From an uncultured delta proteobacterium (lineage in GTDB: Bacteria; Myxococcota_A; Polyangia; Fen-1088): 64,000 nt of DNA. Each line of letters begins with the position of its first letter. Within the stretch, counting starts at the first letter, position 1. The notes beneath the pieces were generated by a model that searched no databases, was not told where the DNA came from, and saw only the letters and a list, made by a program, of their open reading frames with translations. Of this stretch, positions 49,067 to 63,991 are shown piece after piece. The DNA is taken from positions 160,001 through 224,000 of the forward strand of contig CAWCMR010000005.1 in NCBI GenBank assembly GCA_963796685.1, given 5' to 3'. A program made the position numbers and the translations under genes.

Positions 49067-49369
49067 TCAGAGGCGGCGTCCCCAGTAGGCTGGGCGGCGG
49101 CTGTGGTGAGCGATTGCGACGATTTGGATCCGTTCGTCGACCACGCGATAGACGACCGAGAAGGGAAATCGCCGGACGATGTGGCGCCGAGCGCAGGCGA
49201 AAGCGGGCCATCGCTGTGGGGCCGCGACGATCGTGGCGATTGTGTCGTCTACGGCGAGGACGAATTTCGCACCGAGACCACGCTGCCGCCGCTCGTACCA
49301 GCGAGCCGCTAGGCGCAAGTCCAGCGTCGCCTCGGCGTGAATGCTGTATGGCTTCTTAGGGTCGGGCAC
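49067..49369 (-). CDS. RelE/ParE family toxin
   Basis: AARWYERRQRGLG..F, RRFPFSVVY, IVAIAHHSRRPAYW. Confidence 0.85.
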   Translation of the reverse strand: MPDPKKPYSIHAEATLDLRLAARWYERRQRGLGAKFVLAVDDTIATIVAAPQRWPAFACARRHIVRRFPFSVVYRVVDERIQIVAIAHHSRRPAYWGRRL

Positions 49370-49374
49370 GGAGG

Positions 49375-49596
49375 TCAGCAAGGATTCTCGTCTCGGACCT
49401 CGTCCCAGTCGCGAAGGACAGCACGGCCAGCGTCGACATCGGCGCAACGTCGTTCGATCTCGGCGGCCCACGCCTGCTCGATTTCCGCTGAGGCAAAGCC
49501 GCCATGCAAGCTCGCGGCCAGTTTGTCCACTAGCATCTCCCGATCTTTCTCAGGAAGCTCAAGCGCAGCTTCCAGGATTTCCTGCGACTGCCGCAT
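49375..49596 (-). CDS. Addiction module antitoxin (TIGR02574-like)
   Basis: ILEAALELP..RE.LVDKL, WAAEIERR; upstream of the ParE gene. Confidence 0.85.
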   Translation of the reverse strand: MRQSQEILEAALELPEKDREMLVDKLAASLHGGFASAEIEQAWAAEIERRCADVDAGRAVLRDWDEVRDENPC

Positions 49597-49769
49597 GGTT
49601 TGAGTTTAGCGCGTCCACGAGCAGGAGGGAGCATCATTCTGCAGGGTCTCCGTCTCCTATCCCTCGGCTCCTATCCGAGGGTACTTGCTCCGGCTCCTAT
49701 CCGCGGGTACTTCTGCACGAGGGTAATTCTGCGCGCAACTTTCCTGGCAGCGCTTCCGAGAACCCACGC

Positions 49770-50720
49770 ATGACCCTCCCTCGCCAAGTCGTGCCCGGTC
49801 GTGACTACATGATAACCCGCCGCTGTTCCGAGCGGCGTTTCTTCCTGCGCCCGGACGAGGACACCAACAACGCCTTCATCTATTGCCTCGGTTTGGCCGC
49901 CCAACGTGCCAAGGTTCAGGTCACCTTCTCGGTCGCCATGTCGAACCATCACCACACAGGCATCCACGACCCCGACGGCAATTTCCCTATCTTCACCGAG
50001 CACTTCCACGGACTTCTCGCCCGCTGCCAAAACGCGCACCTCGGCCGCTTCGAGAACTTCTGGTCCTCCGAAGCGACCTCGATCGTCAGACTCGTCGAAG
50101 CCAACGACATCATCGAAAAGATGACCTACGCCTTTGCCAATCCCTCCGCCGCTGATTTGGTCGACACCATCGAGGAATGGCCAGGCGTCGCCACGTTCGA
50201 CGCTACCCTCTCCGGTGGTTGCGTCACCGCCACGCGCCCCAAGCACTTCTTCCGCGACGACGGTGGCATGCCCGACGTCATCAACCTGCGCATGGCCAGG
50301 CCCCATGGCTTCGAGAAGCTCGAGCCAAGCGAGTGGTCCAAGCTCATCACCGAGCGTCTCCGGGCCAAGGAGGCCGACCACCGACAAAGACGAGCAGCCC
50401 AAGGCATCACCGTGCTTGGCCGCGAGCGCATCCTCCGACAGAAGCCGTCTGATTGTCCGGATGGCCATGCCCCTCGCTTTCAGATGAGCCCTCAAGTCGC
50501 CGCCAAGAACAAATGGGCGCGGATTGAGGCCTTGCTTCGCAATCGCGGTTTCATCGAAAGGTACCGGGCGGCGTTCTTGGCCCACGTCTCTGGACTGGCC
50601 GACGTACTGTTTCCATTTGGAACCTACTGGATGCGGAAGGTCGCCAAAGTTGCATGTGAAGCTGCGGAGGTGGTCGAGGCAGCAACCCGAGACCCGGCGG
50701 CCAGTCCTGCGCCCGCATAG
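49770..50720 (+). mobile_element. REP-associated tyrosine (HUH/Y1) transposase, RAYT-like
   Basis: PR...PG..Y.ITRRC, MSNHHH (HUH), GRFENFW, YAFANP..A.LV...EWP; flanked by inverted GAGGGTAC repeats. Confidence 0.85.
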
Positions 50721-50920: not shown

Positions 50921-51220
50921 TCCCCAGATTTACCCTCGGTACGGACTCCCCTGCGGGCTCCACCGGGCTCCCCAGATTTACCCTCGTACGGACTCCGCCA
51001 TGAGATCACAATCTGTGATCTCAAGTTGGGGCGGCCGTCGCACGCCGCCCAGCTCTCCTTGGACGGGTCGTCAGTTGTCAGAACCTGGCCCAACCTGATG
51101 CCTTTCCTGAGAGTTGCGGGACTTGGATCTAGTCTCGGATGCTTGTGGAAGAAAGTTGCTTCAAAAGTACCCTCGGAGAGGAGGAACCTGGAGAAAAGTA
51201 CCCTCGGAGAGGAACCTGGG
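50921..51220 (-). repeat. REP-like repeats downstream of RAYT, inverted orientation
   Basis: CCCCAGATTTACCCTCG(G)TACGGACTCC x2; AAAAGTACCCTCGGAGAGG x2. Confidence 0.8.
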
Positions 51221-51375
51221 ATCACCAGCGACGGCTTCTTGTCATCGTGGAAAGGACACAGCCCGATCAAGTCCGCCCCGTGCCGCTTCAGCTCCACGCC
51301 CCGCGCCTCCGCCAGCCTCTGGATGGAGACCTGGCTTTTCAGCCGCTCGAGCTCGACGTCAGGGACACGTGCCAT
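51221..51375 (-). pseudogene. N-terminal remnant of element primase
   Basis: MARVPDVELERLKS...GLCPFHDDKKPSLVI matches the N-terminus of 57592-60660, then breaks at REP repeats. Confidence 0.9.
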
Positions 51376-51552
51376 CGGAGATCCTCCGGAAAGCTGTCAA
51401 GGGCAAAACGTGGTTTTCACGCCCTCGAAAAGTATCATTGCACCCTGGACATGGAATAGTCCATAGTGGAATATAGTTTCATATGGAATATGCCGTCAGC
51501 CCACGGGGCCGGGCAGATCTGGGCTTACGATCTCGACAGCAAGGAGATCGCT

Positions 51553-51969
51553 GTGAAGAAAGGTCAGGCCACTTTGCTCAAGGACGTAGCCGACACCGGA
51601 CAGCCTGCCAATCGGCTGGCCACTGTCCGCAAAGCTCGCGGGGTGACTCAGGTCGACCTATCTGCCCGTCTCGGCATCACCCAGTCCATGTTGTCGAAGT
51701 ACGAGCGAGGTGATCTTCGCCTCCACGGCAACATGCTGGCGCAGCTCGCCGAGATTCTGTCGGTTTCCACCGACGAGCTTCTCGGCGTCCACGTCACGCC
51801 CCTGGCGACGCCGCCAGCGCTCAAGGACAAGCGACTGCGCCACCGCATTCACCAGATTGACCGTCTGTCCAAGCGCGATCGCGAGGCTCTCATCAGGACC
51901 ATCGATGCCTTCATCGGACGCGCTGAAATCGCCAACAATGATTCGGACTCACGGCGCAAGGCCGGATGA
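51553..51969 (+). CDS. XRE-family HTH repressor
   Basis: RKARGVTQVDLSARLGITQSMLSKYERG; AAGGAG RBS; divergent from primase remnant. Confidence 0.9.
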   Translation: MKKGQATLLKDVADTGQPANRLATVRKARGVTQVDLSARLGITQSMLSKYERGDLRLHGNMLAQLAEILSVSTDELLGVHVTPLATPPALKDKRLRHRIHQIDRLSKRDREALIRTIDAFIGRAEIANNDSDSRRKAG

Positions 51970-52004
51970 GGCACCATCAGCTAAAATCACCACCGGAGAT
52001 CGTC

Positions 52005-52208
52005 ATGGCCGCACCTGCACCTCAGCAGCTCTTCGAGAAGATCGCTCGTCTACCTCCTGCCCGTGTCGCAGAGGTCGAGGACTTCGTGGACTTCCTCGCC
52101 CTACGGAATACCGATCGTCAGCTCGCCCATGCCGCCGCCGCAGCTTCCGTGCCGGCCTTTGCCAAGGTCTGGGACAATCCCGAAGACGACGTCTACGACC
52201 AGACATAA
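52005..52208 (+). CDS. DUF2281-like antitoxin
   Basis: LPPARVAEVEDFVDFL...WDNPEDDVY; paralog of 61233-61436. Confidence 0.8.
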   Translation: MAAPAPQQLFEKIARLPPARVAEVEDFVDFLALRNTDRQLAHAAAAASVPAFAKVWDNPEDDVYDQT

Positions 52209-52217
52209 GGGTCCACC

Positions 52218-52445
52218 ATGCCCTACCATCTCATCTTGATGGCCATCACCAGCCAGATCCGCCCGTCACCAACCGTGGGAGAGATCGCCGTCGTGCACTG
52301 GCAAGCCGCCGGGCTGCTCAAGCCGTCTGTCATCAAGCCCCTACTCACTACCATCGAGGCCAGCCTGGTCATCCGTCAGCTCGGCAAGCTTCACGCCGAC
52401 GACCAAGACAGCCTACGCAAGGTTCTCGCTGCGGTCATCGGCTGA
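52218..52445 (+). pseudogene. PemK/MazF toxin with 36-codon in-frame deletion
   Basis: Aligns to 61451-61786 but lacks GDVIVVPFPFTD..KKRPAVV. Confidence 0.85.
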
Positions 52446-52480
52446 CGGCCGTGCTGGTTAGACAGAAAACTGCCTTGAAG

Positions 52481-52801
52481 TCACTTCCTAGGGGATTTCT
52501 CGGGAAATTCTAGCAGCTCCAAGGGGGGCAGGCCCGCGTCGGCTCGTCGCGCTCGCATCTCTCTTGCCCGCTTCTCCAAAACCCCCTCGCCGGTCTGCGC
52601 CTGACGGGGAAGAATGTTGGGCGTTCGTCTGTCCACACGAGGACACGGAGGAGGTACTGTACCGACGCTGTCCCACGGTAGCGGCCGAACAGACCCGTCC
52701 GGCTCGATCTCCATCCGAAGCACGCCATCTCCGATGAAACCATCTACGTATACTTCATACTCGCCTGGGAGTCCCAACATAGATTTCGGTGTCCGCGACA
52801 T
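52481..52801 (-). CDS. Hypothetical protein, candidate immunity gene of the orphan cassette
   Basis: Lower-GC ORF overlapping the 3' end of the orphan CT; start uncertain. Confidence 0.35.
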   Translation of the reverse strand: MSRTPKSMLGLPGEYEVYVDGFIGDGVLRMEIEPDGSVRPLPWDSVGTVPPPCPRVDRRTPNILPRQAQTGEGVLEKRAREMRARRADAGLPPLELLEFPEKSPRK

Positions 52802-53033
52802 TGTAGTCGACGCCGTACGAATCGAGTATCGGTTGTACTTTTCTAACGACCCAATCCTGAAATTCTGCCTTCGGTAACCCCTCGTATTTGCCTGTCCCGA
52901 TTTCTCCGGTTTCTTCAATGTAGTCCCAGCCCGTCAAGTTCTTGGCAAGTGGATTTCCCCCGAGCGCCTTGTCTATAGCGGCCTTACATTGCCCATTGCA
53001 GTTGGGCGCATCATAAGGTCCACCCCCCTGCTG
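52755..53033 (-). pseudogene. Start-less orphan toxin-CT-like cassette beginning QQGG
   Basis: 92-aa open frame QQGGGPYDAPNCNGQCKAAIDK...GTPRRV begins right after the preceding TAA, at the 12-bp junction. Confidence 0.6.
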
Positions 53034-53636
53034 TTACTTTACACCTCCATCTCGGCGAGTGTTCGAAGTAGGGCCGCTCGACGTACCGACAGATGTCGGC
53101 CTTGCGACAGATGAACTCTTGGCTCCACCAGCAGGCATCTCTAGCTTCAGGTTTCCGAGTTGGGAATCGAAGATTGATTCCGTGAAGCCAAAGATGTCGT
53201 CGTGCAAGGCCTCGACGACCCGCTCGTTGACGTCGAACTCCGCCACGCACCCTTCCGTCCTCCAGCAGTTGCCCCCCGGGACCTCCACACTGTGGTTAAT
53301 CGGAATCACCCATCCTGTGTAGCGCTTGGGAGAAATGATCCGGCACGTCGTCGCAGACCATGTGCGCTCGCCTTCACGGTCCAGAGCAAAGCGAGATCCC
53401 CCGAACTGCCGGAAACCGTTGTAGACAGCTTTGAGTCTTACGCGGGGCCCGGCGGCAATCCGTCGTCGTAGCTCAACCAAGTAATCGCGCGATCCTGGCG
53501 GGCTCGGCATCCCCTTCATCCATTCCAACTCCGACGCCGTCGTTCGACCGGCTCCCGCGCTCTCTGCGAATGCCTCCGAGAACATCAGAACGAATCCCAA
53601 GGCGATGGCGACAGACAACCGTGGTGAGAAGTTCAT
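53034..53636 (-). CDS. Exported putative immunity protein
   Basis: GAGGAGG RBS, signal peptide ending AFA, directly downstream of the HExxH ORF. Confidence 0.6.
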   Translation of the reverse strand: MNFSPRLSVAIALGFVLMFSEAFAESAGAGRTTASELEWMKGMPSPPGSRDYLVELRRRIAAGPRVRLKAVYNGFRQFGGSRFALDREGERTWSATTCRIISPKRYTGWVIPINHSVEVPGGNCWRTEGCVAEFDVNERVVEALHDDIFGFTESIFDSQLGNLKLEMPAGGAKSSSVARPTSVGTSSGPTSNTRRDGGVK

Positions 53637-53647
53637 GGTCAGCCTCC

Positions 53648-54454
53648 TCAATAGATCTGTGTAATGCTTGTCGGCGCAATCTGCCGATTGGTCAGGTTGC
53701 AGAGACTTCCAGACGCTGCCATTTGCGCGTTCAAGAATGACTCTATGCCCTGGTAGTTGATCTGCCCGCTACTGATCATACTCGGCAAGGGACCCAATGT
53801 AGCCTGAACGCCGCCAAAGGGCTGCAGCTTCATCGCAACATCGACGGTCGTCGCCCATGCCTCATACTCGGTCCCACCAAGCAGGTGAGTGTACTCGTGC
53901 ATGAATCCAATTACTGTACTTTCGGTCGATGCATTCTGGTTGATGTAGATGGCCGTGCGGTTTTCGCCGCCGTAGCGCGTCCAGGCAATGGCCTGATCCT
54001 TCACTATTACGGTCTTTCCGTCAGGTGTCTGAGCCACAACGTCACCTGGGTCGTATAGGTACACCTTGACGTTCTCATCCTGGAGAACTCCAATTGTACC
54101 GTCCGCACCAATCAGCCCAAGTCCCTTTCTGAGACTATCGCCCGTGACACTGTGCCTAAGAACATTCGGGGAGTTGTTGTCTACAGTGGTGCCTTTCGAA
54201 TCGAACGGTAGGTCGCCCCCCTGCTGTGTTTGGTCGCCCCACCGCGTCTCCACCGTAAACCAAGGCATTTCCCTGATGCCTTCCGCAGGCTTACGCCGCT
54301 TCGGCCGGGGTGCGACCTGCCGAAAATTTGTCGCGAGGCCCAGACGTGCGTTTTCGGATCTGCAACACCTCGGCCGAGGGCGCGTGCTGGCGCACCGACG
54401 GGTGTTCCCCGTCGAGACTTCTTTTTTAGCTGCCTGCTGCTGAGCCAGGACCAT
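53648..54454 (-). CDS. Constant leader + variable zincin-like toxin domain (allele 1)
   Basis: About 80 aa shared with 62510-63331 up to GDQTQQGG, then unrelated lower-GC domain with MHEYTH..EYEAW; true start uncertain. Confidence 0.65.
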   Translation of the reverse strand: MVLAQQQAAKKEVSTGNTRRCASTRPRPRCCRSENARLGLATNFRQVAPRPKRRKPAEGIREMPWFTVETRWGDQTQQGGDLPFDSKGTTVDNNSPNVLRHSVTGDSLRKGLGLIGADGTIGVLQDENVKVYLYDPGDVVAQTPDGKTVIVKDQAIAWTRYGGENRTAIYINQNASTESTVIGFMHEYTHLLGGTEYEAWATTVDVAMKLQPFGGVQATLGPLPSMISSGQINYQGIESFLNAQMAASGSLCNLTNRQIAPTSITQIY

Positions 54455-54590
54455 CGTGGTGCTGCCGATTCTACCGGGAAGGGCGATTAAGGGAAGGAAG
54501 TCGCCAAGACCGACGGTGGCGCCGGCGAGACGCGCGGCGAGCCCGTCGCCAGCGAGCCAGCGGCGAGCCGGCCCCAGATGGTCGGGCCTC
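54216..54590 (-). repeat. Conserved unit-end segment, copy 1
   Basis: Direct repeat of 63090-63470; hairpins AAGGCAT-7-ATGCCTT, CCGAAAA..TTTTCGG, CCTCGGCCGAGG. Confidence 0.9.
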
Positions 54591-54669
54591 CGACGGTCGT
54601 GTAGAGTTCAAGGCCCAATACTTCTCCCAACGACGGGCAGCTTCCGGTAGAAATGAAGGCACGGCGACC

Positions 54670-54894
54670 ATGCCACCGCTTCCCATCATCTCCGGCGCTG
54701 ACTGCATTCAGGCTCTGCGAAAATTTGGATACGAGTTCGCCCGGCAGAATGGCAGCCACGTGCGCTTGGTGTGTCCCGGACGGATGCCCGTGACCGTACC
54801 GATGCACAAGCCGATCAAGCGCGGGACCCTGCGATCGATTCTCCGCACTGCCGAGATCGAGGTCGAGGTATTCGTGACCGCGTTACGTCGCTAG
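54670..54894 (+). CDS. hicA: HicA toxin
   Basis: ALRKFGY..RQNGSH, VTVPMH..IKRGTLRSIL. Confidence 0.9.
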   Translation: MPPLPIISGADCIQALRKFGYEFARQNGSHVRLVCPGRMPVTVPMHKPIKRGTLRSILRTAEIEVEVFVTALRR

Positions 54895-55109
54895 ACCGCG
54901 ACCTTCGTGATCTCGATTTGGCCCGGCAGCGTCCAGCCTTCGGCTGCCTGATTTTCAAGGCACAGCTCGATGGCTTCGCGGATGTTGGCCAGGGCCTCGT
55001 CCCGGGTGTCGCCCTGGCTGATGCAGCCTGGGATCACAGGACACTCGACGACAAAACCGCCATCTTCGTCGGGCGTCAAAATCACGGGCAGTTCATGCGC
55101 GGTGGCCAT
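54891..55109 (-). CDS. hicB: Short HicB antitoxin without DNA-binding domain
   Basis: DEDGGFVVECPVIPGCISQGDTRDEALANIREAI. Confidence 0.9.
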   Translation of the reverse strand: MATAHELPVILTPDEDGGFVVECPVIPGCISQGDTRDEALANIREAIELCLENQAAEGWTLPGQIEITKVAV

Positions 55110-56187
55110 GGGCCTAGTCTACCAGATTCTGGGACCAGGTCTTGGAGGGGAGCGGACCGACGATTGCCGGCGGCGAGCGCAGCGAGCCGCCTGTGCAATC
55201 GGCGGGACGCGAGCCGGGCGAGATGATGACCCTGTTCATGCTGATCGTCGAGGCGGAGGGCGCAAGCGGGAGCGGCAGAGGCGCCGTGGCCGGCGCCGGA
55301 GCCGCGGTGCCCAAAGAGCGCGCCGTCGGCCGAGGCACGATGCCTGCCCCTCGCCAGCCGGGCCCCGCACACGCGTGCAATGCACGCTGCAGGACGGCTC
55401 GGCCGCCGGACCGGGGCCCGTGGTCCGGCGCCGTTTCCCCCTAGGCGGAGCGGGCGGCGCCGTCCGCGGCGCTCAGATCGCCCGCGTAGCCAGAGCGCCC
55501 CTCCCCTTTGGGGATTCCTTAAAAAAAGGGGGTGCCAGGGGAGGGGTGTCCAGAGGGGAGGGGCGCGGCGGGGGAAACGGCGGCCAAAGCGTGCTTGCAC
55601 GCGTGTGCGTAAGGGGCCCGGCGTCGACCGTGGCGCGATGTCGGCGCCAGGCGCGCGCCGTGGTTTTGTGCACGATCGCCGCGCTGGCGAGCGAGAGCTG
55701 TCGTCGCCGCTTTCCCGGATGCAGCGACCATGCCGAGGCGTCCGATGCGAGCACAAGTTGACCGCCGCTGCGTCCCCGATGGCACTTGCGAGCGAGGCGC
55801 CGCGGCATGGGAGCGTCTACCGTGTGCCGCCGCTTTCTCCGATGGAGTCGCGCGCGCGTGCGCCCGGCAGGGGGCACGCGCGCACGACGGGGCTCGGGCG
55901 AAGATCGCGGCGCTGAGCGCCTGCACGATGGAGTGGACTGGGCCTTGCCAGCGCGAGCGCGGCGCTGGCCGGCGCTCATGTCCCGCGCACCCGCGCGCGA
56001 GCGCGTGCAAGGACCAGGACGCGGTGACCTCGGCACGGATCGCGGCGCTGCGAGCCTCGCACCACCCCGATGGAGCGGGCGCCCGTGCGGTCGCAGCTTG
56101 AGGAAATGCTGTGGCCCAGCTGAAGGTGGAGCGACGGCACGGGCGCCCGCGGGGCCGCAGGCACGGAGCGCGGCTCCCAGCCGCGGC

Positions 56188-56541
56188 TCAAGCGTGGCCA
56201 GATTGCCGCCGCTGGATCACGGTCTCGGTCTCGGCAAGCCACGCCTCGATGGCATCACCACCACCTTGTCCCGCCGCGATCATCAGCTTGCCCAGCATCA
56301 CCAAGCTCGTGCCGTCCAAGTTGTAAAAGACCTCGCCCACGGTCACGTGGCTGCAAGCGGTCCACAACGACCACGCCACCAGCAGCAGCAAGCGCTCGCC
56401 ACTCGACAATGGCCCGCCGCCGTGTTCTGCCAGATCCCTGGCCAGCACCGTCGGTCCCGCGTCGGTCCACAGCTCGGTCAGCCGAGCTCGAGCACAGAAT
56501 GCCCGGCACACCCGCGAAAGTTGCGACTCTGAGCTAAACAC
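56188..56541 (-). CDS. Hypothetical protein coupled to the recombinase gene
   Basis: GAGGAGG RBS; 8-nt overlap with the recombinase stop. Confidence 0.6.
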   Translation of the reverse strand: MFSSESQLSRVCRAFCARARLTELWTDAGPTVLARDLAEHGGGPLSSGERLLLLVAWSLWTACSHVTVGEVFYNLDGTSLVMLGKLMIAAGQGGGDAIEAWLAETETVIQRRQSGHA

Positions 56542-57592
56542 GATCGTCCTCCTCCTCGCCGGACTCGGCGGCTAAAGTAGAAAGCAATTCCTCGGCGTCC
56601 TTCTCGCTGACCGCCGGCTTCTGGCCAGATTCCCGTCGACCGAGATGCGCCCCGGGGTGGGTCAGCTCGTGCACTTCCTTCAGCTTCTTGATCGATACCA
56701 GGGTGTAGATGCTCGTCGTCTCCAGGCTCGCGTGCCCTAGCATCGCCTGGATGAAGCGGATGTCCGCCCCGCTTTCCAGCATCAAGGTGGCCATCGTGTG
56801 ACGGAAAAGATGGCAACTCCCCACCTTGCCGATTTTCGCCTGCTCGATGTAGCCCCGCACGATGTCCGTCAGCGTGTGCGGCATGAAGCCGTTCCCGAGG
56901 TGCGAGATAAACAGCACGCCCTCGTCCGGCTCCACCACGTCCTTGGGCCGTACCTCGACGAGGTACTTTTCGATCCAGGAAAGCGCACGCTCGCCGATGG
57001 GCACCACACGATCTTTCCGGCCCTTCCCGAGCCGCACCATCAGCGTGCCGGCCTCTGGCTGCACGTCGTAGATCCCAAGCCTGACCAGCTCGCTCCGCCG
57101 GATCCCTGTCGAATACAGCGTCTCCAGCATCGCCCGGTCTCGGATCCCGCTTGGTTTCGTCACGTCCGGCAAGCTCAGGACGTGTTCCACCTCGGCGATG
57201 GTCAGCACGTCCCGCGGCAGCCGCCGATCCAGCCGAGGCAGATCGATCTCAGAAGCCGGATTGAAAAGGATCATGTTCGACTTCGCCATCCACTTGAAGA
57301 AGGCCAGCACCGCCGCCAGCCGCTTGTGTTGCGAGGCGATGGTCAGCGGCTTACCGAGCTTCGTCCGGTAGTAGAAGAGCCAGCGCTGGTAGCGCTCCAA
57401 GATCGGCCGCGTGACCTCCGTCGGGTTGCGCAGGCTGCGCTCTTCGCACCAATTGAAGAAAGCCCGCAGGTTGCCCTCGTTCCACTCGATGGTTCCCGGC
57501 GAAAAGTGCTTCGCCCGCCGCATGTCCAGAAACTCGGCAGCTCGTGCCCCGAGCGTCCCGTAGCTTGCAAGCTCGCGCAGTTTCCTGGCCAT
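56534..57592 (-). CDS. XerC/XerD-like tyrosine recombinase
   Basis: RDRAMLETLYSTGIRRSE, GKGRKDR, HLFRH, LGHASLETTSIYT; 1-nt overlap with primase stop. Confidence 0.95.
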   Translation of the reverse strand: MARKLRELASYGTLGARAAEFLDMRRAKHFSPGTIEWNEGNLRAFFNWCEERSLRNPTEVTRPILERYQRWLFYYRTKLGKPLTIASQHKRLAAVLAFFKWMAKSNMILFNPASEIDLPRLDRRLPRDVLTIAEVEHVLSLPDVTKPSGIRDRAMLETLYSTGIRRSELVRLGIYDVQPEAGTLMVRLGKGRKDRVVPIGERALSWIEKYLVEVRPKDVVEPDEGVLFISHLGNGFMPHTLTDIVRGYIEQAKIGKVGSCHLFRHTMATLMLESGADIRFIQAMLGHASLETTSIYTLVSIKKLKEVHELTHPGAHLGRRESGQKPAVSEKDAEELLSTLAAESGEEEDDRV

Positions 57593-60500
57593 CAGTTCAC
57601 CTTGGCCGCGGCTGCGAGTACGACGGGCACATCAGGGTACGATGCGATTTTGGGCTCTACCCCCCTATGTGCTGTTTTCGGGTCAAAACGCCCGTTTTCA
57701 CCATTTCCATCGGGAATTGCAGCCGAAAGCTCACCCCGACCACCCCCCGACACCCCCCCGACTTCGGCCCGACTTGGCCCCGACTTCTTTGCCTCCAGCC
57801 CCGACCACCCGGCCAATACCCCCGACTTCTTTTCGTCGTACCCCAAGCTTCCAGGCTCGATCAGCCCAGACAGAAACGGCGTCCCGTCCTTGCCCTTGCC
57901 ATCATAGGCCAGCTCGTAGACAAAGCCCTGGCCCCGACTCCCGCGGTGCACCGCCAGGTATTCCAGATCTTCCAGGCGCCCAAGGTGGATCTTGAGCTGC
58001 GTGTTCCCCCAGCCGGTCGCGTCCCGCACCTCCCGCCGGCTGAAACGAAAATCCTTCCGCTCCATGCCCAGCCGCTGGCACTCCGCCGTCACGTACGCAT
58101 CTACCAGCAGCAAAAGCCGCCGCGTCTGCGGTGGCAGCTCGTCGAGCGATCGCCCAAGCACCTGGTCGGCCAGGCGGTTTGCCACCGAAATATCATCGAG
58201 AGTGACCTCGATGTACTCGATGGCCTGCACGTCCTGCTGTGCGGTCTTCACCGGCCGTTGATGCTGGTGGAGCAGTGCCACCGTCTCGATCAGCGTCAGG
58301 TATTTCATGTGGTCCCGTCGCGTTCGCGTCTGCCGATCTACAAACGTGAGGTCACGGGCATAGGGGTTCACCACCATCAGCGGACGCAGCAGGCGCTGCG
58401 CGTTCCGGTGGACCTTCAGCACGTCCTTCTTCCCCGCCCGTGCCAGCCGTCCCTCCAGCGTGTGTGCTTCGCGCTGGATCTTGTGAATGGCCTGCGTCTG
58501 CTCCCGGTCTTCGTCGACGGTCAGCACCAGGCACCGATTCAAAAGCTCCTCGTCGATCTCGATCGCCGTCGTGGTCAGAAAGATCATCACCGGTCCCTCG
58601 ACCCGGTATTCGTGCGTGATCAGCTTGCCGCTCTCTGGATCTTTGCCAGTGGATGCGATGGTCAGCTCGCCTTCGCTCTGCAAGACCTTCAGTGCGTACG
58701 AGGCCCGCGAGGCGCCTTCTTCCTCGACGATGGCGAGGATCTTGTGTTTCAGATTCGTCTCGCCCATGTAGAAGAGCGACTGTCCAGTCATCGCCGCGTA
58801 CTTCACCCGCTCTTCCTCGGGCACGAAGGCCAAGACCGCTTCCATCAGCGACGATTTCCCCGCTGCCGACGACGACTGGATCACCACCGCCAGGGGATCT
58901 TCCAGCTTGCGCGACACCGCCGCCAGGTAGCCGACGAGCTTGTTGGTTTCCTCGCCCACCACCCCGCAGCGACGGAAATCTTCGAGGATCCGATCGAGCA
59001 GCCGAGGATCTTTCAGCAGTGCCAGCGCCGCCGCCGTCTCCTCGTCGCTGAGCCGCACCGTCGTGTCTTTCGGCGCCAGTGCAGCCCGAATCTGCTGGTC
59101 TTGTAGTTGTTCCAGCTTCAGCAGCACCTTGCCCAGATCGGCCTTGATCACATCCTCAGTCACGCCAATCTCAAGCGCAGCCTGTTTCACGTAGATCGCG
59201 CGCTGTCGGGCGCCGTACACGTCCAAGGTGTCGACGTGGAAATGCTCGCCGCGACCGACGTGCAGGTTCACCTTCAGTGAGTCGAAGGCCGTGTTCTTCG
59301 CCAGGCCACGCACCCGATAACGACGGTCGCCGAAGCAAAAAATCACGTCTTCGCCCTGATGTTCGCACGGCACGTCTGCCACCGACACAGCCTCGGGCGC
59401 CGTCGTTTCTAAGATCGTCACCGGTGGTGGCTCCAGCGTGGCCTCCGTAGTAGGCGGGGGCTCAGCGTTGGCGGCTAAAGGAAGAGGGGCCGCCACGACT
59501 TCCGACTGCGGCGCTGGCGCCGCCGTGTCCACGGTGAGTTCGCGTTTTTCGCCCTTGCCCATGAAGACCGCGCTTTTCAGCGCCAGTTCCAGCGACTTCG
59601 CGGCCGGCGTCACCTTGCATGCGTATTCGTTCGCGTCCATGTCGCGAGGAAATTGCACGCGGTAGCACGAGATGCCCGCAGCCATCATCTGTGCGGCCAC
59701 CTTCTCCGCGCCACGCTCGCCGGCTTCGTCACGGTCAAACGCGATCAGCACCTGCGTGGTCCCGTAGCGCTTGAAGGCTGCCAGATGCTCGGCAATCGGG
59801 CTTTCCACCCCATAGATCGAGGTGACGTTGCGGAAGCCGTGGCACCAGAAGGTCAGGGCATCGATCAGCGCCTCGCACAGGATGATCGACTTCGACACCC
59901 GCAAGGCTTCCCAGTTGAAGATCCCTCGGTGCGGGCCGGGCAGATACATATGCAGGGGCGTTCCCTCGCGCAGCCCTGCTGTGATCTTCCGCCCGTACAT
60001 CCCCGCCACGTTTCCTTCTTCGTCGAAGATCGGGATCACCACCGAGCCGGTCATGTGCTCGTGCCCGCTCTCCCGCAAAATTCCCAGCTTCTGTAGCCGC
60101 CCCCGGATCTCGCTGCCGGCCTTCCACGCCCGCATCGGCAAGCGCAGCCCCAGCGTCCGGTTGGCGAAGCCCAGCTTAAAGCGGTCGATCATCTCCGACG
60201 ATTGCAGCCCCCGCCCTTCCAGGTACTTCACCGCCTCCGGGCTCTGCTTCAGCGTCTCGTGGTAGTAGCCCACCACCTGCGCCATGATCTCCCGGTCATC
60301 CGCATCCGCCTGCACAGGCGCCGCCAGTTTCCGGATCGTCGCCGTCTTCACCACGTTCGTCGACGGCGACGTCAAAGGCAGATCGGCCCGCAGCAGTTCC
60401 ACCGCGTGCCGAAAGGAAACGCCCTCGGCCTTCATCACCCAGTCGATCACCGACCCGCCCACCTGGCAGGCACCGAGGCAGTGCCAAAGGTTCTTCCGAG

Positions 60501-60660
60501 AGCTGATCACCAGCGACGGCTTCTTGTCGTCGTGAAACGGACACAGGCCAATCAAGTCCGCCCCCTGCCGCTTCAGTACCACGCCCCGTGCCTCCGCCAG
60601 CCGCTGCACCGACACCTCGGACTTCAGCTTCTCGATCTCGGACTCCGGGATTCGGGCCAC
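57592..60660 (-). CDS. Primase-like replication protein: CHC2 zinc finger + TOPRIM + P-loop NTPase
   Basis: CPFHDD..WHCLGAC, CEALIDAL, FDRDEAG, DANE, Walker A SSSAAGKS. Confidence 0.9.
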   Translation of the reverse strand: MARIPESEIEKLKSEVSVQRLAEARGVVLKRQGADLIGLCPFHDDKKPSLVISSRKNLWHCLGACQVGGSVIDWVMKAEGVSFRHAVELLRADLPLTSPSTNVVKTATIRKLAAPVQADADDREIMAQVVGYYHETLKQSPEAVKYLEGRGLQSSEMIDRFKLGFANRTLGLRLPMRAWKAGSEIRGRLQKLGILRESGHEHMTGSVVIPIFDEEGNVAGMYGRKITAGLREGTPLHMYLPGPHRGIFNWEALRVSKSIILCEALIDALTFWCHGFRNVTSIYGVESPIAEHLAAFKRYGTTQVLIAFDRDEAGERGAEKVAAQMMAAGISCYRVQFPRDMDANEYACKVTPAAKSLELALKSAVFMGKGEKRELTVDTAAPAPQSEVVAAPLPLAANAEPPPTTEATLEPPPVTILETTAPEAVSVADVPCEHQGEDVIFCFGDRRYRVRGLAKNTAFDSLKVNLHVGRGEHFHVDTLDVYGARQRAIYVKQAALEIGVTEDVIKADLGKVLLKLEQLQDQQIRAALAPKDTTVRLSDEETAAALALLKDPRLLDRILEDFRRCGVVGEETNKLVGYLAAVSRKLEDPLAVVIQSSSAAGKSSLMEAVLAFVPEEERVKYAAMTGQSLFYMGETNLKHKILAIVEEEGASRASYALKVLQSEGELTIASTGKDPESGKLITHEYRVEGPVMIFLTTTAIEIDEELLNRCLVLTVDEDREQTQAIHKIQREAHTLEGRLARAGKKDVLKVHRNAQRLLRPLMVVNPYARDLTFVDRQTRTRRDHMKYLTLIETVALLHQHQRPVKTAQQDVQAIEYIEVTLDDISVANRLADQVLGRSLDELPPQTRRLLLLVDAYVTAECQRLGMERKDFRFSRREVRDATGWGNTQLKIHLGRLEDLEYLAVHRGSRGQGFVYELAYDGKGKDGTPFLSGLIEPGSLGYDEKKSGVLAGWSGLEAKKSGPSRAEVGGVSGGGRGELSAAIPDGNGENGRFDPKTAHRGVEPKIASYPDVPVVLAAAAKVN

Positions 60661-60813
60661 AGCGCGCCTCCCTTCAAAATCCTGTCAAGTGGAAGATACT
60701 TGTTTTTACCAGTTCCATCGACTCGCCTAGATGGTACTAGTATAATGGTATTTATGCAAGCGCTAATTTCACCATCGGGGCCTGGTCCCGAAATTCGGCC
60801 TTACGATCTGGGC

Positions 60814-61179
60814 ATGCCACAGAGAGCCCCGAAGACCCGGCCAGCCGAGGGCGAGCGCTTGGCCGACCTACGTCGCGCCGCCGGCCTAACCCAAGTCGAG
60901 TTCGCCAAGCTCGTCGGCGAAACCCAGCAAAACATCACCTTCTGGGAGCACAGCGACAAGCCACCACGCTCCGACGTCCTGCCCAAGATGGCCAAGGTCC
61001 TCGGCTGCTCCGTTGAGCAGCTCCTCGGCATCTCACCGCTCGCCGATCGTCGCCCAGGCCCCGTTGGGAAGACCCAACGGGCGTTCGAGGAGGTCGCACG
61101 CCTCCCGCGTTCTCAGCAGGACAAGATCGTCGAAATCGTCGAGGCCCTCGTCGACCAGTACAGACGCAAGGCTAGCTGA
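60814..61179 (+). CDS. XRE-family HTH repressor
   Basis: LRRAAGLTQVEFAKLVGETQQNITFWE; C-terminal RPGP..RLPRSQQ; divergent from primase. Confidence 0.88.
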   Translation: MPQRAPKTRPAEGERLADLRRAAGLTQVEFAKLVGETQQNITFWEHSDKPPRSDVLPKMAKVLGCSVEQLLGISPLADRRPGPVGKTQRAFEEVARLPRSQQDKIVEIVEALVDQYRRKAS

Positions 61180-61232
61180 TGTTGGCGTGCAGCCCGATCC
61201 TTCCTCGGACATCATAAGATCAGGAGACCATC

Positions 61233-61436
61233 ATGCCTGCTACCGCACGTGACCTGCTGTTTGAAAAGATCGATAGACTTCCACCGGCCCGCGTGGCCGA
61301 GATCGAGGATTTCGTCGACTTCCTCGCCTCGCGAGACACCGATCGCGAGCTGGCCCACGCTGCCACCGCAGCGGCCGTGCCTGCCTTTGCCAAGGTCTGG
61401 GACAATCCCGAGGACGACGTCTACAACGACATCTGA
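61233..61436 (+). CDS. DUF2281-like antitoxin
   Basis: AGGAG RBS; LPPARVAEIEDFVDFL; upstream of PemK. Confidence 0.82.
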   Translation: MPATARDLLFEKIDRLPPARVAEIEDFVDFLASRDTDRELAHAATAAAVPAFAKVWDNPEDDVYNDI

Positions 61437-61450
61437 AAGTCGATAGCACC

Positions 61451-61786
61451 ATGCCCTACCGCTTCGGAGACGTCATCGTCGTTCCCTTTCCCTTCACCGA
61501 CCAGTCCGCCACCAAGAAGCGCCCCGCCGTCGTCGTCAGCTCCGAGGCGTATCACCGCGAGCGGCCCGACCTGATCCTGATGGCCATCACCAGCCAGGTG
61601 CGGCCTGCGCCCACGGTTGGCGAGGTCGCTGTCCTGCACTGGCAAGAGGCCGGCTTGCTCAAGCCTTCGGTCATCAAACCCCTGCTCACAACTATCGAAA
61701 CAAGCCTCGTCCTCCGCCAACTCGGCACCCTTCACGCCGATGACCAAGCCAGCCTACGCAAAGTCATTGCCGAAATTCTCGGATGA
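61451..61786 (+). CDS. PemK/MazF family toxin
   Basis: GDVIVVPFPFTD...KKRPAVVVS, AITSQ, GLLKPS. Confidence 0.9.
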   Translation: MPYRFGDVIVVPFPFTDQSATKKRPAVVVSSEAYHRERPDLILMAITSQVRPAPTVGEVAVLHWQEAGLLKPSVIKPLLTTIETSLVLRQLGTLHADDQASLRKVIAEILG

Positions 61787-61895
61787 CAGTGGCCTTCAGG
61801 CCACGCCATCCAGTAGTGCCCATCATCGCCCGCTCCGAGCTCCAGGCCCTTGCAGTCAAGCAGGCCCAGAGCACCCAGCAGAAGACGAAATAGTA

Positions 61896-62513
61896 CTATT
61901 TGTTCGGTGGTGTCGTGTCCTTCCAGCCCTGGGGGACGACGATCTTCTGCCAGCCTGACCAAACAGGCTTCTTGGGAAGGTAGGCTCCCTCTTCGGCACC
62001 GGGCCAGTTGTCTCGCGACATGTATGACATGCCCATCGTCAACGCCTCACCTGGTACGAGGCTGTAGCAATATGGGTAGAATCTATACTTGAACTCGATC
62101 TTCTCGCCCGGCCGAAGGCTTCGAAAATCGGATATCTCCTTGCCTTTGCTAAAGGGCTCGGAACACAACCAGTGAACGGTCCTATGGTGTTCATCTGAAA
62201 TAGCAATCTCGACTTCGTATGAACGCGAGCCCAGGCCTGCACTCCCCTCGCCAACACTCGGCTTCGAATCTATCCAGAAGGTGCGGTCCGACGTTGGGTT
62301 TGCCAGTGTCATGTTCACAATGACCTCAGTGGCTGACGAAACTTGGTTGAAGGTAAAAGACAACCCCTCCACCCGTGCTTCAGACTCTGCCAGAGCACCT
62401 GGCGTGCTCTTCTCGCTCTGGGTATTCGTCGGCATAGACGAAGGCTTTACACCGACACCTGCATGACAGCCAACCATCACGGAGATGGCAGCAGCAATCG
62501 CGGCAATCCTCAC
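61896..62513 (-). CDS. Putative immunity lipoprotein
   Basis: GTGA coupling to the toxin stop; signal RIAAIAAAISVMVGC; lower GC. Confidence 0.65.
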   Translation of the reverse strand: MRIAAIAAAISVMVGCHAGVGVKPSSMPTNTQSEKSTPGALAESEARVEGLSFTFNQVSSATEVIVNMTLANPTSDRTFWIDSKPSVGEGSAGLGSRSYEVEIAISDEHHRTVHWLCSEPFSKGKEISDFRSLRPGEKIEFKYRFYPYCYSLVPGEALTMGMSYMSRDNWPGAEEGAYLPKKPVWSGWQKIVVPQGWKDTTPPNK

Positions 62514-63331
62514 TTGATGTAGCACGATGTAGCGGGGCATTGGTCTCCATTCCCTAATTGATAATTGTACGGCCAGTTTGCCACTCGGCTGGAATAGGGC
62601 GAGTTCCTGAGAACGTCAGTCAGTTCCGCAATCTTGTCAACCTCAACGCCCCATTCACTCTCCAGACCGGGGTTGCCCGCGAATGAGTACTGATTCGTGA
62701 CATCAAGTCCCCTTCGGTACCCTTCAAGTTCGTTTAGGGCGCGGGCGTACTTGTAGTTCTGGGAACTCGGATTAGCAAAATTCGCAGACATGACCTGTCC
62801 TACGTGAACTCCCTCGTGCTCGACTACGACGTTGAGAAGCGCATCGCCTTGAAACGCATCTGGCGAAATCTTGACCCGTCCGTACATGTCCGTTACGCCA
62901 AGCTTCTCCGTTCCCGCAAGTGTCTGGTCGATAGTTGCTCGGCCTTCCAAAGACGTCCCTTTGGTGTACGTATCTAATGTCGCCTGATCTACTGACAACC
63001 CCGCTCCATCACCGCCCATCGGTGTTCCCTCCATCATTGCCTTTGTGGTCACCAGGTTCTGCACCTTGTCCGCGCCGCTGCCTCCCCCACCCCCCTGCTG
63101 TGTTTGGTCGCCCCACCGCGATTCCACCGTAAACGAAGGCATTTCCCTGATGCCTTCCGCAGGCTTACGCCGCTTCGGCCGGGGCGCGACCTGCCGAAAA
63201 TTTGTCGCGAGGCCCAGACGTGCGTTTTCGGATCGGCAACACCTCGGCCGAGGGCGGGAGCTTGCACACCGACGGGCGCCCCACCTGGAGGCTTTTTCTT
63301 TAGCCGCTTCGTCGATGCCGAGGACCATCAC
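62510..63331 (-). CDS. Constant leader + variable zincin-like toxin domain (allele 2)
   Basis: Same leader to GDQTQQGG, then a different domain with EHEGVH...NELEGY. Confidence 0.65.
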   Translation of the reverse strand: MMVLGIDEAAKEKASRWGARRCASSRPRPRCCRSENARLGLATNFRQVAPRPKRRKPAEGIREMPSFTVESRWGDQTQQGGGGGSGADKVQNLVTTKAMMEGTPMGGDGAGLSVDQATLDTYTKGTSLEGRATIDQTLAGTEKLGVTDMYGRVKISPDAFQGDALLNVVVEHEGVHVGQVMSANFANPSSQNYKYARALNELEGYRRGLDVTNQYSFAGNPGLESEWGVEVDKIAELTDVLRNSPYSSRVANWPYNYQLGNGDQCPATSCYIK

Positions 63332-63470
63332 CTGGCCCCGATTCTACCGGGAAGAGCAGCTAAGGGAAGGAAGTTGGCAAGGCCAGCGGTGGCGCCGGCG
63401 AGCGGTGAAGCGAGCCCATCGCCAGCGAGCGAGCCGCGAGGCCGGCCCCGGATGCGCGGGGCTGCCGCGA
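63090..63470 (-). repeat. Conserved unit-end segment, copy 2
   Basis: Direct repeat of 54216-54590. Confidence 0.9.
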
Positions 63471-63480
63471 CGGCCAAGGA

Positions 63481-63777
63481 CTACCGTTGTGTCCAGTAGC
63501 CTTGCCGACGCTTGAGATGAGCGACGGCCACGATTCCGATCTCGTCGTCGGATATCTCACGATAGATGATGGCGTAGGGATAGGGTCCAAGGAGGACGCG
63601 ACGGACGCCGCCTATCAAGGGCCATCGGCGTGGTGACTCGACGATTTCACCGACACGATGGCGAATGGCGGCAATGAAGCGAGCACCCAAGCCAGCCAGA
63701 CGCTCCTCGTACCAAGAGGCAGCATCCTGCAGCTCTGCCTCGGCGAGAGGATTGAAGCGAAGGCGTCTACTTGCCAC
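63481..63777 (-). CDS. RelE/ParE family toxin
   Basis: AEAELQDAASWYEERLAGLG, YPYAIIY, VAVAHLKRRQGYW. Confidence 0.88.
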   Translation of the reverse strand: MASRRLRFNPLAEAELQDAASWYEERLAGLGARFIAAIRHRVGEIVESPRRWPLIGGVRRVLLGPYPYAIIYREISDDEIGIVAVAHLKRRQGYWTQR

Positions 63778-63991
63778 CGAAGCGTTGCTCGAGACGAGCG
63801 AAGACCTCGTCGGCCGGGATGGTCGCGACTCTGCCGGCATCGACGTCTTCGATGCGGCGTTGGATTTCGGCTTCCCAGTACTCCCCGAGATCTCCAAGCT
63901 CCAGGCTTGCCGCGAGCTTGTCGACCAGGACCTCACGCTGCTCTTGCGGCAGCTGAAGTGCGGCTTCCAGAATTTCCTGCGACTGCAGCAT
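63767..63991 (-). CDS. Addiction module antitoxin (TIGR02574-like)
   Basis: Paralog of 49375-49596 (QSQEILEAAL.LP..RE.LVDKLAASL). Confidence 0.88.
   Translation of the reverse strand: MLQSQEILEAALQLPQEQREVLVDKLAASLELGDLGEYWEAEIQRRIEDVDAGRVATIPADEVFARLEQRFGGK

Follow-up and report, generated by a model that had tools for sequence, protein, structure and literature searches.

A decayed Rhs toxin tip and its immunity-gene remnant in an orphan array of an uncultured Polyangia bacterium, with evidence for a short core at which tips may be exchanged

A start-less reading frame behind an immunity gene

The DNA considered here (the window) is a stretch of 64,000 nucleotides (nt) from an uncultured delta proteobacterium (Myxococcota_A, Polyangia, Fen-1088), positions 160,001 to 224,000 of contig CAWCMR010000005.1 in GenBank assembly GCA_963796685.1; the contig is called C5 below, and DNA beyond the window end is C5:224001 onward. 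The window carries part of an array of toxin tips and putative immunity genes that lies downstream of a large Rhs gene, and our subject is one member of this array, a reading frame without a start codon, together with the short sequence at which it begins. On the minus strand, an open reading frame (ORF) of 205 amino acids (aa) at 53034-53651, which we call ImmB, closes GTA AAG TAA, with the stop codon at 53034-53036. The 11-mer CAGCAGGGGGG follows directly (the next bases are CAG CAG GGG GGT GGA) and leads into a frame of 92 codons, such that translation of 52755-53036 gives a stop, QQGGGPYDAPNCNGQCK...EIYVGTPRRV and a second stop. According to the translation and a mechanical ORF list, ATG, GTG and TTG are absent before codon 33, and the only listed ORF is 52755-52937 on the minus strand, 60 aa from TTG, which corresponds to the last 60 codons of the hidden frame. 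A preliminary description of the window had pointed to a start-less frame of 92 aa immediately behind the stop of an immunity gene, of which the ORF track catches only the last 60 aa, and the sequence bears it out on both counts. A promoter and terminator scan of 52300-54700 gave one promoter-like site (53037-53010, minus strand) against 0.6 expected and three terminator-like sites against 1.9 expected, numbers that we judge uninformative. Rfam had no match in the whole window at the gathering threshold, and in E-value mode gave only chance-level matches on 52400-54700.

The frame is half of an Rhs toxin domain

Homology shows that the hidden frame is not a chance GC-rich ORF. A phmmer search of 1.84e9 (1.84 billion) representatives found nine proteins at E<=1e-3, eight of which were retrieved. 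Rhs tail sequence lies upstream of the match in half of these eight (P0002, P0003, P0005 and P0009); P0003 is a protein of 2862 aa in which the hidden frame is matched at 2685-2775, and the other three are fragments in which ...NPLRY.DPTGY precedes the match. Two others, P0001 and P0004 (the latter being the orphan of sister genome G002), have a leader-encoded start of the form MP.F.V...WGDQTQQGG, and the remaining two are short gene calls that start inside the domain. A metagenome scan led to one locus, L095, where the domain forms the last 180 aa of an Rhs ORF of at least 2843 aa. Homologues that are C-termini of Rhs proteins, which the preliminary description had proposed to look for, therefore exist, and in P0003 and L095 they occupy the extreme C-terminus of full-length Rhs proteins, beyond the end of the Rhs core.

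These relatives are about twice as long as the window copy. Hidden residues 2-87 align to residues 4-89 of the L095 tip (67% identity, E 4e-35), and the hidden frame aligns to residues 1-93 of the 184-aa G002 orphan tip (44% identity, E 1e-20), so that the alignment ends at residue 87-89 of 180-184 and the frame holds the first ~88 of ~180 domain residues. Six of the eight rows of an alignment of the family (A2) extend for some ~90 aa past IYVG(G), by way of TPG...SF.RTG..HExGHQ...EW.AD.F, and the rows that do not are the window copy and P0001. The intact tips compared (n=7) measure 180-196 aa as against 92 for the hidden frame, and the HExxH motif, present in 6/6 full-length relatives of A2, is absent from it. 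With the half that bears HExxH missing, and a length half that of its relatives, the hidden frame represents half a domain. P0001 (101 aa, 75% identical) is a second truncated copy of this tip family, with a leader-encoded MPSFMVESRWGDQTQQGGG start and with similarity lost after FQDWV; its truncation may be due to decay that took place independently, or to a frameshift, in another genome.

For the G002 homologue, AlphaFold with an alignment of eight rows gave a model with a predicted local distance difference test score (pLDDT) of 83.7 and a predicted template modelling score (pTM) of 0.80, in which a small sheet and a helix precede a long helix; the latter (residues 116-138) contains HELGH and lies beyond the part kept in the window copy. 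In an exhaustive structural alignment search the best-ranked entry was the VgrG2b metallopeptidase effector domain (6h56, Z 6.9, root-mean-square deviation 4.1 A over 118 residues), and most of the top 50 rows are zinc metallopeptidase entries. From the motif and this ranking of folds we assign the tip family, with moderate confidence, to the zincin-like HExxH proteins. Pfam and NCBIfam contain no family for any of the tips or immunity proteins, and the tip family is uncatalogued; its site of action may be the periplasm, as the signal-bearing immunity proteins, in appearance periplasmic lipoproteins, would suggest.

The immunity gene is truncated as well

The gene behind the hidden frame belongs to a family whose position, directly behind the tip, suggests a role in immunity. 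The ORF at 52484-52780 matches a 243-codon frame downstream of the L095 tip only over residues 163-227 (60%, E 3e-25), and a 325-codon frame downstream of the G002 tip only over residues 236-295 (55%). By eye, the immunity proteins of L095 and G002 open with a lipoprotein-like signal that the window ORF lacks. By arithmetic on the alignment ends, 4 nt of the window (52772-52769) take the place of ~692 nt in L095 and of ~670 nt in G002. In run X5, an RNA library, a contig of a relative agrees with the window over 52401-52768 and differs beyond; the differing part, translated by hand, reads ...FELLGCDPLT followed by PGEYE and matches FNTGVCEPLSPGEYE of G002, that is, an intact immunity protein. 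The truncated immunity ORF, the tip alignments and the X5 contig together point to one deletion of ~0.7 kb, which would have taken from the tip its catalytic half and from the immunity gene its first two thirds, with the stumps joined at ~52769/52768. On the sequence evidence the tip and immunity pair is a dead relic that offers no usable reserve, and the hidden frame taken by itself is ordinary. The preliminary description had presented it as a third start-less toxin cassette behind an immunity gene, and it is indeed a cassette of an Rhs tip family, but one with an incomplete tip (~88 of ~180 residues). The further suggestion of a silent reserve cassette, expressed only after recombination, does not fit a tip without the HExxH half found in all six full-length A2 relatives; and 52481-52801, which had been taken for the cassette's immunity gene, encodes only the C-terminal third of the cognate immunity protein. 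An ATG added to the frame is predicted to give no toxicity from a pair deleted internally in this way.

A 12-nt core shared by junctions with unrelated flanks

The 11-mer CAGCAGGGGGG is found again at 54216-54226 and 63090-63100, where a shared leader of ~370 nt yields to two unrelated frames that bear HExxH. Only A+CAGCAGGGGGG (12 nt) is common to the hidden junction and both of these leader junctions; the match to junction A reaches 15 nt, and the leader is not shared, much as the preliminary description had stated. Counted over both strands, the 7.3-Mb assembly has eight copies of the 11-mer, where base composition would predict ~18, and two copies of the exact 12-mer CAGCAGGGGGGT that had first been noticed. 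Four of the eight lie on one strand within 19 kb of C5, each of them an in-frame QQGG that opens a toxin-tip-like frame, and the other four have unrelated contexts. As for the possibility that the word is frequent by chance, it is not rare, but its clustering is non-random: by our arithmetic the chance of three further copies in one 19-kb same-strand stretch is ~1e-7.

The Rhs carrier, an ORF of 3015 aa at C5:231299-240343 on the minus strand, 7.3 kb past the window end, contains the fourth clustered copy (at C5:231855, which is 7.9 kb beyond the window) and has the relic downstream of it on the same strand. The N-terminus of the carrier resembles that of a lipoprotein, and Pfam recognizes RHS_repeat, SpvB and FG-GAP domains in it. 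The last residues of its Rhs core are ...NPLRYTDPTGF; a segment of ~130 aa comes next, and then ...NPVDQAT, QQGGGGGGG and a tip of 189 aa. This position of the core identifies QQGG as the linker between a constant body and a variable toxin domain. Rhs genes of two further genomes of the genus close their constant part in like manner, with NPVDQATQQ before DGG and with ...WQEQQGGG. The ~130-aa segment between DPTGF and QQGG (L001:7866-8260, minus strand, equivalent to G000:C5:231866-232260) is Gly/Ala-rich and hydrophobic and is 43-55% conserved in two genomes of the genus; it may be a membrane-entry module of the released tip.

Altogether nine junctions could be compared, in which the left flank is Rhs, leader or the 3' end of ImmB, the right flanks are unrelated, and the only common part is A-CAGCAGG(G/A)(G/C)GG. 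Contigs from sequencing runs add to this picture; all 20 holders have shares of <=0.20 and so represent relatives and not the source, and parts of the window that they leave uncovered carry no meaning. The similarity of relatives' contigs from four soil and peat runs stops at 54210-54228, where the leader runs into other tips and tip B has a different sequence upstream. Relatives' contigs also end at 53026, where behind an ImmB-like stop and the core comes a start-less tip of another kind (QQGGDEDFLRSA when read by hand). The claim that the core pinpoints the crossover is thus well supported, by seven junctions from two genomes that share it between unrelated flanks and by contigs of relatives that break there.

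Elements E1 and E2 and the organization of the array

Read from the Rhs gene along the minus strand, the array consists of a first element (E1), a core, the tip and immunity pair CT_A/ImmA with the rest of a second element (E2), a core, CT_B/ImmB, a core, the relic and the remains of an older element. E1 and E2 measure 8.8 kb each, and each ends at a core with a displaced tip/immunity pair after it; direct repeats of the core bound both exactly. E1 contains, in order, the active tip (189 aa), a 94-aa membrane ORF, an SseB-family ORF and a helix-turn-helix (HTH) gene (both on the plus strand), a primase (1033 aa), the integrase, a 116-aa ORF, a GC-rich stretch, ParE-like genes, the leader and the core. 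In E2 the order is CT_A, ImmA, MazEF-like genes, an HTH gene, a primase (1022 aa), the integrase (352 aa), a 117-aa ORF, a GC-rich stretch, the leader and the core. Behind the relic come MazEF-like DNA, an HTH gene and the first ~52 primase codons, and then unrelated DNA. The features of the window are listed in Table 1.

Table 1. Features of the window at the hidden junction and in the surrounding array
Feature	Position	Strand	Remarks
Older element remains behind the relic	51220-52446		MazEF-like DNA 51995-52446 (77-81% identical to 61223-61787); HTH gene 51466-51969 (+); ~52 primase codons from 51375 downward
3' remnant of cognate immunity gene	52481-52768	-	PGEYEVYV... to stop; N-terminal ~160 residues missing, including the lipoprotein-like signal of relatives
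Four out-of-frame codons PRRV and TGA	52755-52769	-	Immunity-gene DNA; putative deletion junction ~52769/52768; coordinates by arithmetic on alignments
Toxin-tip remnant CT_C	52770-53033	-	88 codons, QQGG...EIYVGT; N-terminal half of HExxH (probably zincin-like) Rhs tip family; no start codon
12-nt core A+CAGCAGGGGGG at hidden junction	53023-53034	-	Reads Q-Q-G-G; first A is last base of ImmB TAA
ImmB, putative secreted immunity protein of tip B, 205 aa	53034-53651	-	Start overlaps CT_B stop by 4 nt; no family; from position and, by eye, N-terminal hydrophobic segment
CT_B, displaced 192-aa toxin tip	53648-54226	-	Begins at core 54216-54226; HEYTH motif
Leader of E2	54227-54600	-	Last ~170 nt nearly invariant in 4 copies; TAGAAT box; AGGGAAATG site opens MPWFTV..QQGG frame
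117-aa ORF of element backbone	56188-56541	-	No family found
Predicted Xer-type tyrosine recombinase of E2, 352 aa	56534-57592	-	Phage_integrase 4e-38; NF002331 427.9 bits, cut-off 371
Primase of E2, 1022 aa	57592-60660	-	CHC2 zinc finger, Toprim, long C-terminal part
HTH (Cro/C1-type) regulator of E2	60793-61179	+	Divergent from primase
MazF/PemK-like toxin gene, E2 cargo	61451-61786	+	Domain search
ImmA, lipoprotein-like putative immunity protein of tip A, 214 aa	61896-62540	-	No family
CT_A, 196-aa toxin tip (HEGVH)	62510-63100	-	Starts at core 63090-63100; read as E2 cargo tip displaced on E1 arrival
Leader of E1	63101-63463	-	Rest of E1 and Rhs gene past window end, C5:224001-240343
ParE-like toxin gene inside E1	63481-63936	-	Domain search

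The two elements share a 6.1-kb backbone that is 87% identical and a leader that is 85% identical, with cargo ends that are unrelated; no further copies of the element or of the leader occur in the genome. Their integrases are 97% identical but their primases 82% (window 56534-57592 against L001:1436-2494 and 57592-60660 against L001:2494-5595), from which the element backbones appear to be mosaics. The recombinase passes the cut-off of the Xer-type family NF002331 (427.9 against 371 bits), on which we base its predicted assignment to that type, and scores 112 and 84 bits with integron-integrase models whose cut-offs are 265 and 435. A tRNA scan of the window found a single tRNA-Gly, far off at 8283, and no tRNA target near the elements.

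The leader finds no match in the Rhs gene by blastn, and among four leader copies from two genomes identity stops exactly at the core. Its last ~170 nt (54227-54400 and 63101-63275, minus strand; L011:1720-1890; L010:12883-13055) are near-invariant, while the neighbouring DNA differs by 9-15%, and contain short palindromes (CCTCGG/CCGAGG, and AAGGCAT..ATGCCTT around AGGGAA-ATG). This invariant part could possibly consist of recombinase arm sites or of a module for promoter and translation start; folding of 225 nt of leader RNA (z = -1.59, with 17/200 shuffles as stable) makes no case for a structured RNA. Also conserved between E1 and E2 is a GC-rich stretch of ~1.1 kb between the 117-aa ORF and the leader (window 55000-56100; L001:425-1100), in which no convincing gene is seen, the only frames being Arg/Pro-rich and overlapping, on either strand. 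Besides the MazF/PemK-like gene (61451-61786, plus strand) and the ParE-like gene (63481-63936, minus strand), the elements carry the SseB-family ORF (L001:6155-6979, plus strand) as cargo; a third ParE-like gene (49067-49471, minus strand) lies just beyond the truncated element, and the ORF at 49749-50717, which had been suspected to be a transposase, has no Pfam match.

The sister genome G002, which was assembled independently, has the same order of Rhs gene, element, element and orphan, with other tips, and its homologue of the relic is intact and stands behind a normal leader. Its Rhs carrier (L010-L012, G002:C16:300300-309100) is split over at least seven frames, either as a decaying gene or through assembly errors, and its orphan array is intact. 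Contigs from RNA libraries span the leader, the core and other tips, for which carry-over of DNA is possible.

Integrase-primase pairs in other phyla

A distant survey, limited to one genome per species, gave 71 loci from many phyla with an integrase 49-63% identical, in 63 of which the primase is also present, mostly directly upstream of the integrase. By record title these primase-integrase loci (L013-L083) include Proteobacteria, Acidobacteriota and Planctomycetota. A match to the Rhs tail of G000 occurs in 17/71; it lies 3-7 kb before the primase or, as a short piece, behind the integrase. Blastn of the leader against the 71 loci gave no match. The order in L053 and L018 is Rhs and core, then primase and integrase, then non-Rhs sequence, core and orphan. 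The repeat of L053 is 38 nt long and encodes WNRYSYVLNNPV of the Rhs core end. One copy stands in the Rhs gene and two stand beyond the integrase; of these two, the first comes after non-Rhs sequence and the second, with a second orphan, lies 23 nt behind an immunity stop, in an arrangement like that of the window relic; the repeat of L018 is 15 nt long, at DYMHA. Two other candidates were rejected, L032 as a longer Rhs-Rhs duplication and L076 because its second repeat copy does not stand in an open frame. L013 and L044 have no flanking repeat of >=11 nt, L049 and L051 have 11-nt matches only, and L017 was left out of this comparison since two search windows overlapped.

How the array may have arisen

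We consider it quite likely that the relic is the 5' half of a displaced Rhs tip, fused by deletion to the tail of its own immunity gene, in an array whose tips are swapped site-specifically at the core through the recombinase of the elements. An element circle with leader, core and tip would recombine with the Rhs gene, core and tip at the 12-nt core, so that the Rhs body would receive the element's own tip by fusion, as the active one, and the former tip, with its immunity gene, would be parked behind the leader of the element. There the promoter-like TAGAAT box of the leader and the AGGGAAATG start site would keep the displaced pair expressed. Tip B and ImmB would behave as a 1.2-kb cassette without backbone between two cores, which would explain why the relic has a core but no leader. 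We infer a site-specific exchange from the leader's want of similarity to Rhs, from identity that ends exactly at the core, from the unrelated flanks, from the layout of G002 and from the breaks in relatives' contigs.

Classical C-terminal displacement, in which homologous recombination of the RecA type built the array and the primase-integrase elements are merely nearby, or had integrated at another place and were carried along, is the accepted model for rhs and cdiA orphan arrays in the text available from PMC5727410 and PMC3482391, and some tips do share part of the linker after the core (QQGGGG.SGAD.VQ in CT_A and in CT1 of G002, for example). It appears improbable here, though it is the most serious of the alternatives. 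The leader is unmatched in the Rhs gene, and orphans A and B, with no Rhs-derived DNA upstream, therefore lack the upstream homology that this mechanism needs; three unrelated kinds of left flank (Rhs, leader and the ImmB 3' end) and unrelated right flanks leave 12 nt of identity, and each element ends exactly at a core. That the tandem elements and abutting cassettes are a chimera of strain variants is a thought that a metagenome-assembled genome (MAG) with 6.5% contamination, and repeats 85-91% identical that invite mis-joins, would encourage. Such an artefact is nevertheless hardly credible when E1 and E2 differ by 13% and in their cargo, when the independently assembled sister genome repeats the order of Rhs gene, element, element and orphan, and when contigs of other runs repeat the junction of ImmB stop and core.

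Other alternatives concern the relic itself. An intact silent reserve cassette, which would become a toxin once recombined onto the carrier and for which 52481-52801 would be the immunity gene, finds encouragement in the in-frame core that the hidden frame has in common with the active tip and two other orphans, and in the occurrence of its family as Rhs C-termini. With half the length of all seven intact tips, no HExxH half, and an immunity ORF that aligns to the last third of its relatives only, without the N-terminal signal region, this reading has next to no chance of being right. Some residual use of the truncated frame, whether as recombination donor for related tips or as the source of a small protein through reinitiation downstream of ImmB, might be read from the leader-encoded start of the truncated P0001 and from the sigma-70-like match that spans the junction (53037-53010). 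It is very doubtful all the same, given that no ATG, GTG or TTG precedes codon 33, that one promoter site is set against 0.6 expected, and that P0001 breaks at a different point, as independent decay would have it.

Several observations weigh against a site-specific exchange at the core and against our reading of the relic. Within two mismatches, no second core was found inside E1 or E2 except for one site inside the primase gene, and this leaves the origin of the backbone-less cassette without explanation. At the core, no inverted-repeat arms or symmetry of binding arms were found, and a complete Xer-type site would be expected to be longer than its 12 nt of identity. In relatives' contigs neither excision nor a circular form nor a secure empty site came to light; the X3 contig seems to join 53025 to 54216 (leader, core and relic without tip B and ImmB), but with a short side of 25 nt it was flagged as unreliable and is a hint only. 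The assembly is a MAG, 88.6% complete with 6.5% contamination, and mis-assembly of a tandem array is conceivable in principle. The deletion is deduced from relatives 44-67% identical and not by comparison with an ancestor. Foldseek of the full-length tip-family model against PDB gave no match at E<=0.001, and the best fold match to metallopeptidases is weak, its Z of 6.9 being under the secure level of 8 for that tool. Of nine distant loci inspected for flanking repeats only two (L053 and L018) are clean, the rest being unclear or negative.

Site-specific exchange at the core through the element recombinase remains the reading that we prefer for this array. Beyond it, and more tentatively, with the odds if anything slightly against us, we suggest that elements with a primase and an Xer-type integrase might in several phyla be dedicated tip shuttles, which would arm Rhs proteins with their own tip and immunity gene at an in-frame core, where constant body and variable tip meet, and would express the displaced pair from a leader, with single units of core, tip and immunity gene gained or lost there in the fashion of integron cassettes.

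Relation to known systems

Bacteroidales rAID clusters are acquired-defence arrays with a recombinase, and SGI1 in trmE and the dusA islands are genomic islands that insert into a gene at its 3' end, which they replace. With SGI1 and the dusA islands the present elements have in common a tyrosine recombinase, a short core in coding sequence, tandem integration and a new 3' end supplied by the element; those islands restore the same protein end, whereas the new end here is a different toxin domain with its own immunity gene. Tip B and ImmB resemble integron cassettes and Xer-dependent pdif modules in being a promoter-less unit of 1.2 kb between two short sites, near a leader with a promoter-like box. 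Unlike an integron integrase, the recombinase here reaches 112 bits with a model that calls for 265, and no attC-like hairpin or 28-bp dif-like site was identified, no search having been aimed at attC. The C-terminal metallopeptidase effector of Pseudomonas aeruginosa VgrG2b (PDB 6h56) is likewise an HExxH toxin tip of a secreted carrier and is the best structural match of the full-length tip family, but at 14% identity and an insecure Z, and the window relic is without the catalytic part that is matched.

The Rhs and CdiA orphan modules described in the available text of PMC5727410 and PMC3482391 have the same general plan of a full-length carrier followed on the same strand by start-less tips with immunity genes, the older of which decay to pseudogenes; arrays of orphan tips as pseudogenes also figure in the accessible part of PMC13183296. 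The orphans here differ in that they have no piece of the Rhs core, the shared part being the 12-nt linker core after the ~130-aa hydrophobic segment that follows DPxG, and in that elements of 8.8 kb, each with a primase, an integrase and a leader that is conserved, stand between them. The available portion of PMC3482391 describes toxin cassettes that lack a start and are accompanied by immunity genes, as well as XerC/D next to polyimmunity loci, and that of 10.64898/2026.07.13.738213 mentions Xer systems beside poly-immunity arrays of Xenorhabdus and Photorhabdus. The likeness to these recombinase-associated arrays lies in an Xer-type tyrosine recombinase by toxin-immunity arrays and in a suspected cassette-like gain (PMC3482391; 10.64898/2026.07.13.738213, as far as their available text goes). 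Poly-immunity arrays are described as consisting of immunity genes without toxin cassettes; the present locus differs in that an active carrier would exchange whole tip and immunity pairs in frame, and in that a primase accompanies the recombinase. Integrases recur beside the Rhs loci of Snodgrassella and Gilliamella from the bee gut, with a suggested role in capturing Rhs sequences (PMC5727410, available text); that text, unlike the present case, defines no site, element boundary or in-frame core. In the literature that we searched, recombinases are noted beside Rhs and immunity arrays, and we found no definition of a primase-integrase element that inserts at an in-frame Rhs core; subscription journals and supplements were outside this search, and such a description may thus be in print.

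Implications

What appears to be of interest at this locus is the element-borne, core-defined exchange of tips that we propose to have taken place around the relic, and it can be tested. The acquisition of new tips by polymorphic toxins is usually put down to homologous recombination, to which the locus offers a concrete and testable alternative: it has a defined in-frame site of 12 nt, boundaries of the elements and a recombinase as candidate, and a sister genome as well as metagenomes of soil and peat supply natural variants. If this alternative is true, Rhs "C-terminal displacement" would, in these lineages at least, be a site-specific process driven by mobile elements and not homologous recombination. 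It would link the biology of mobile elements to kin discrimination among bacteria, and it would explain why Xer-type recombinases recur beside arrays of toxin and immunity genes.

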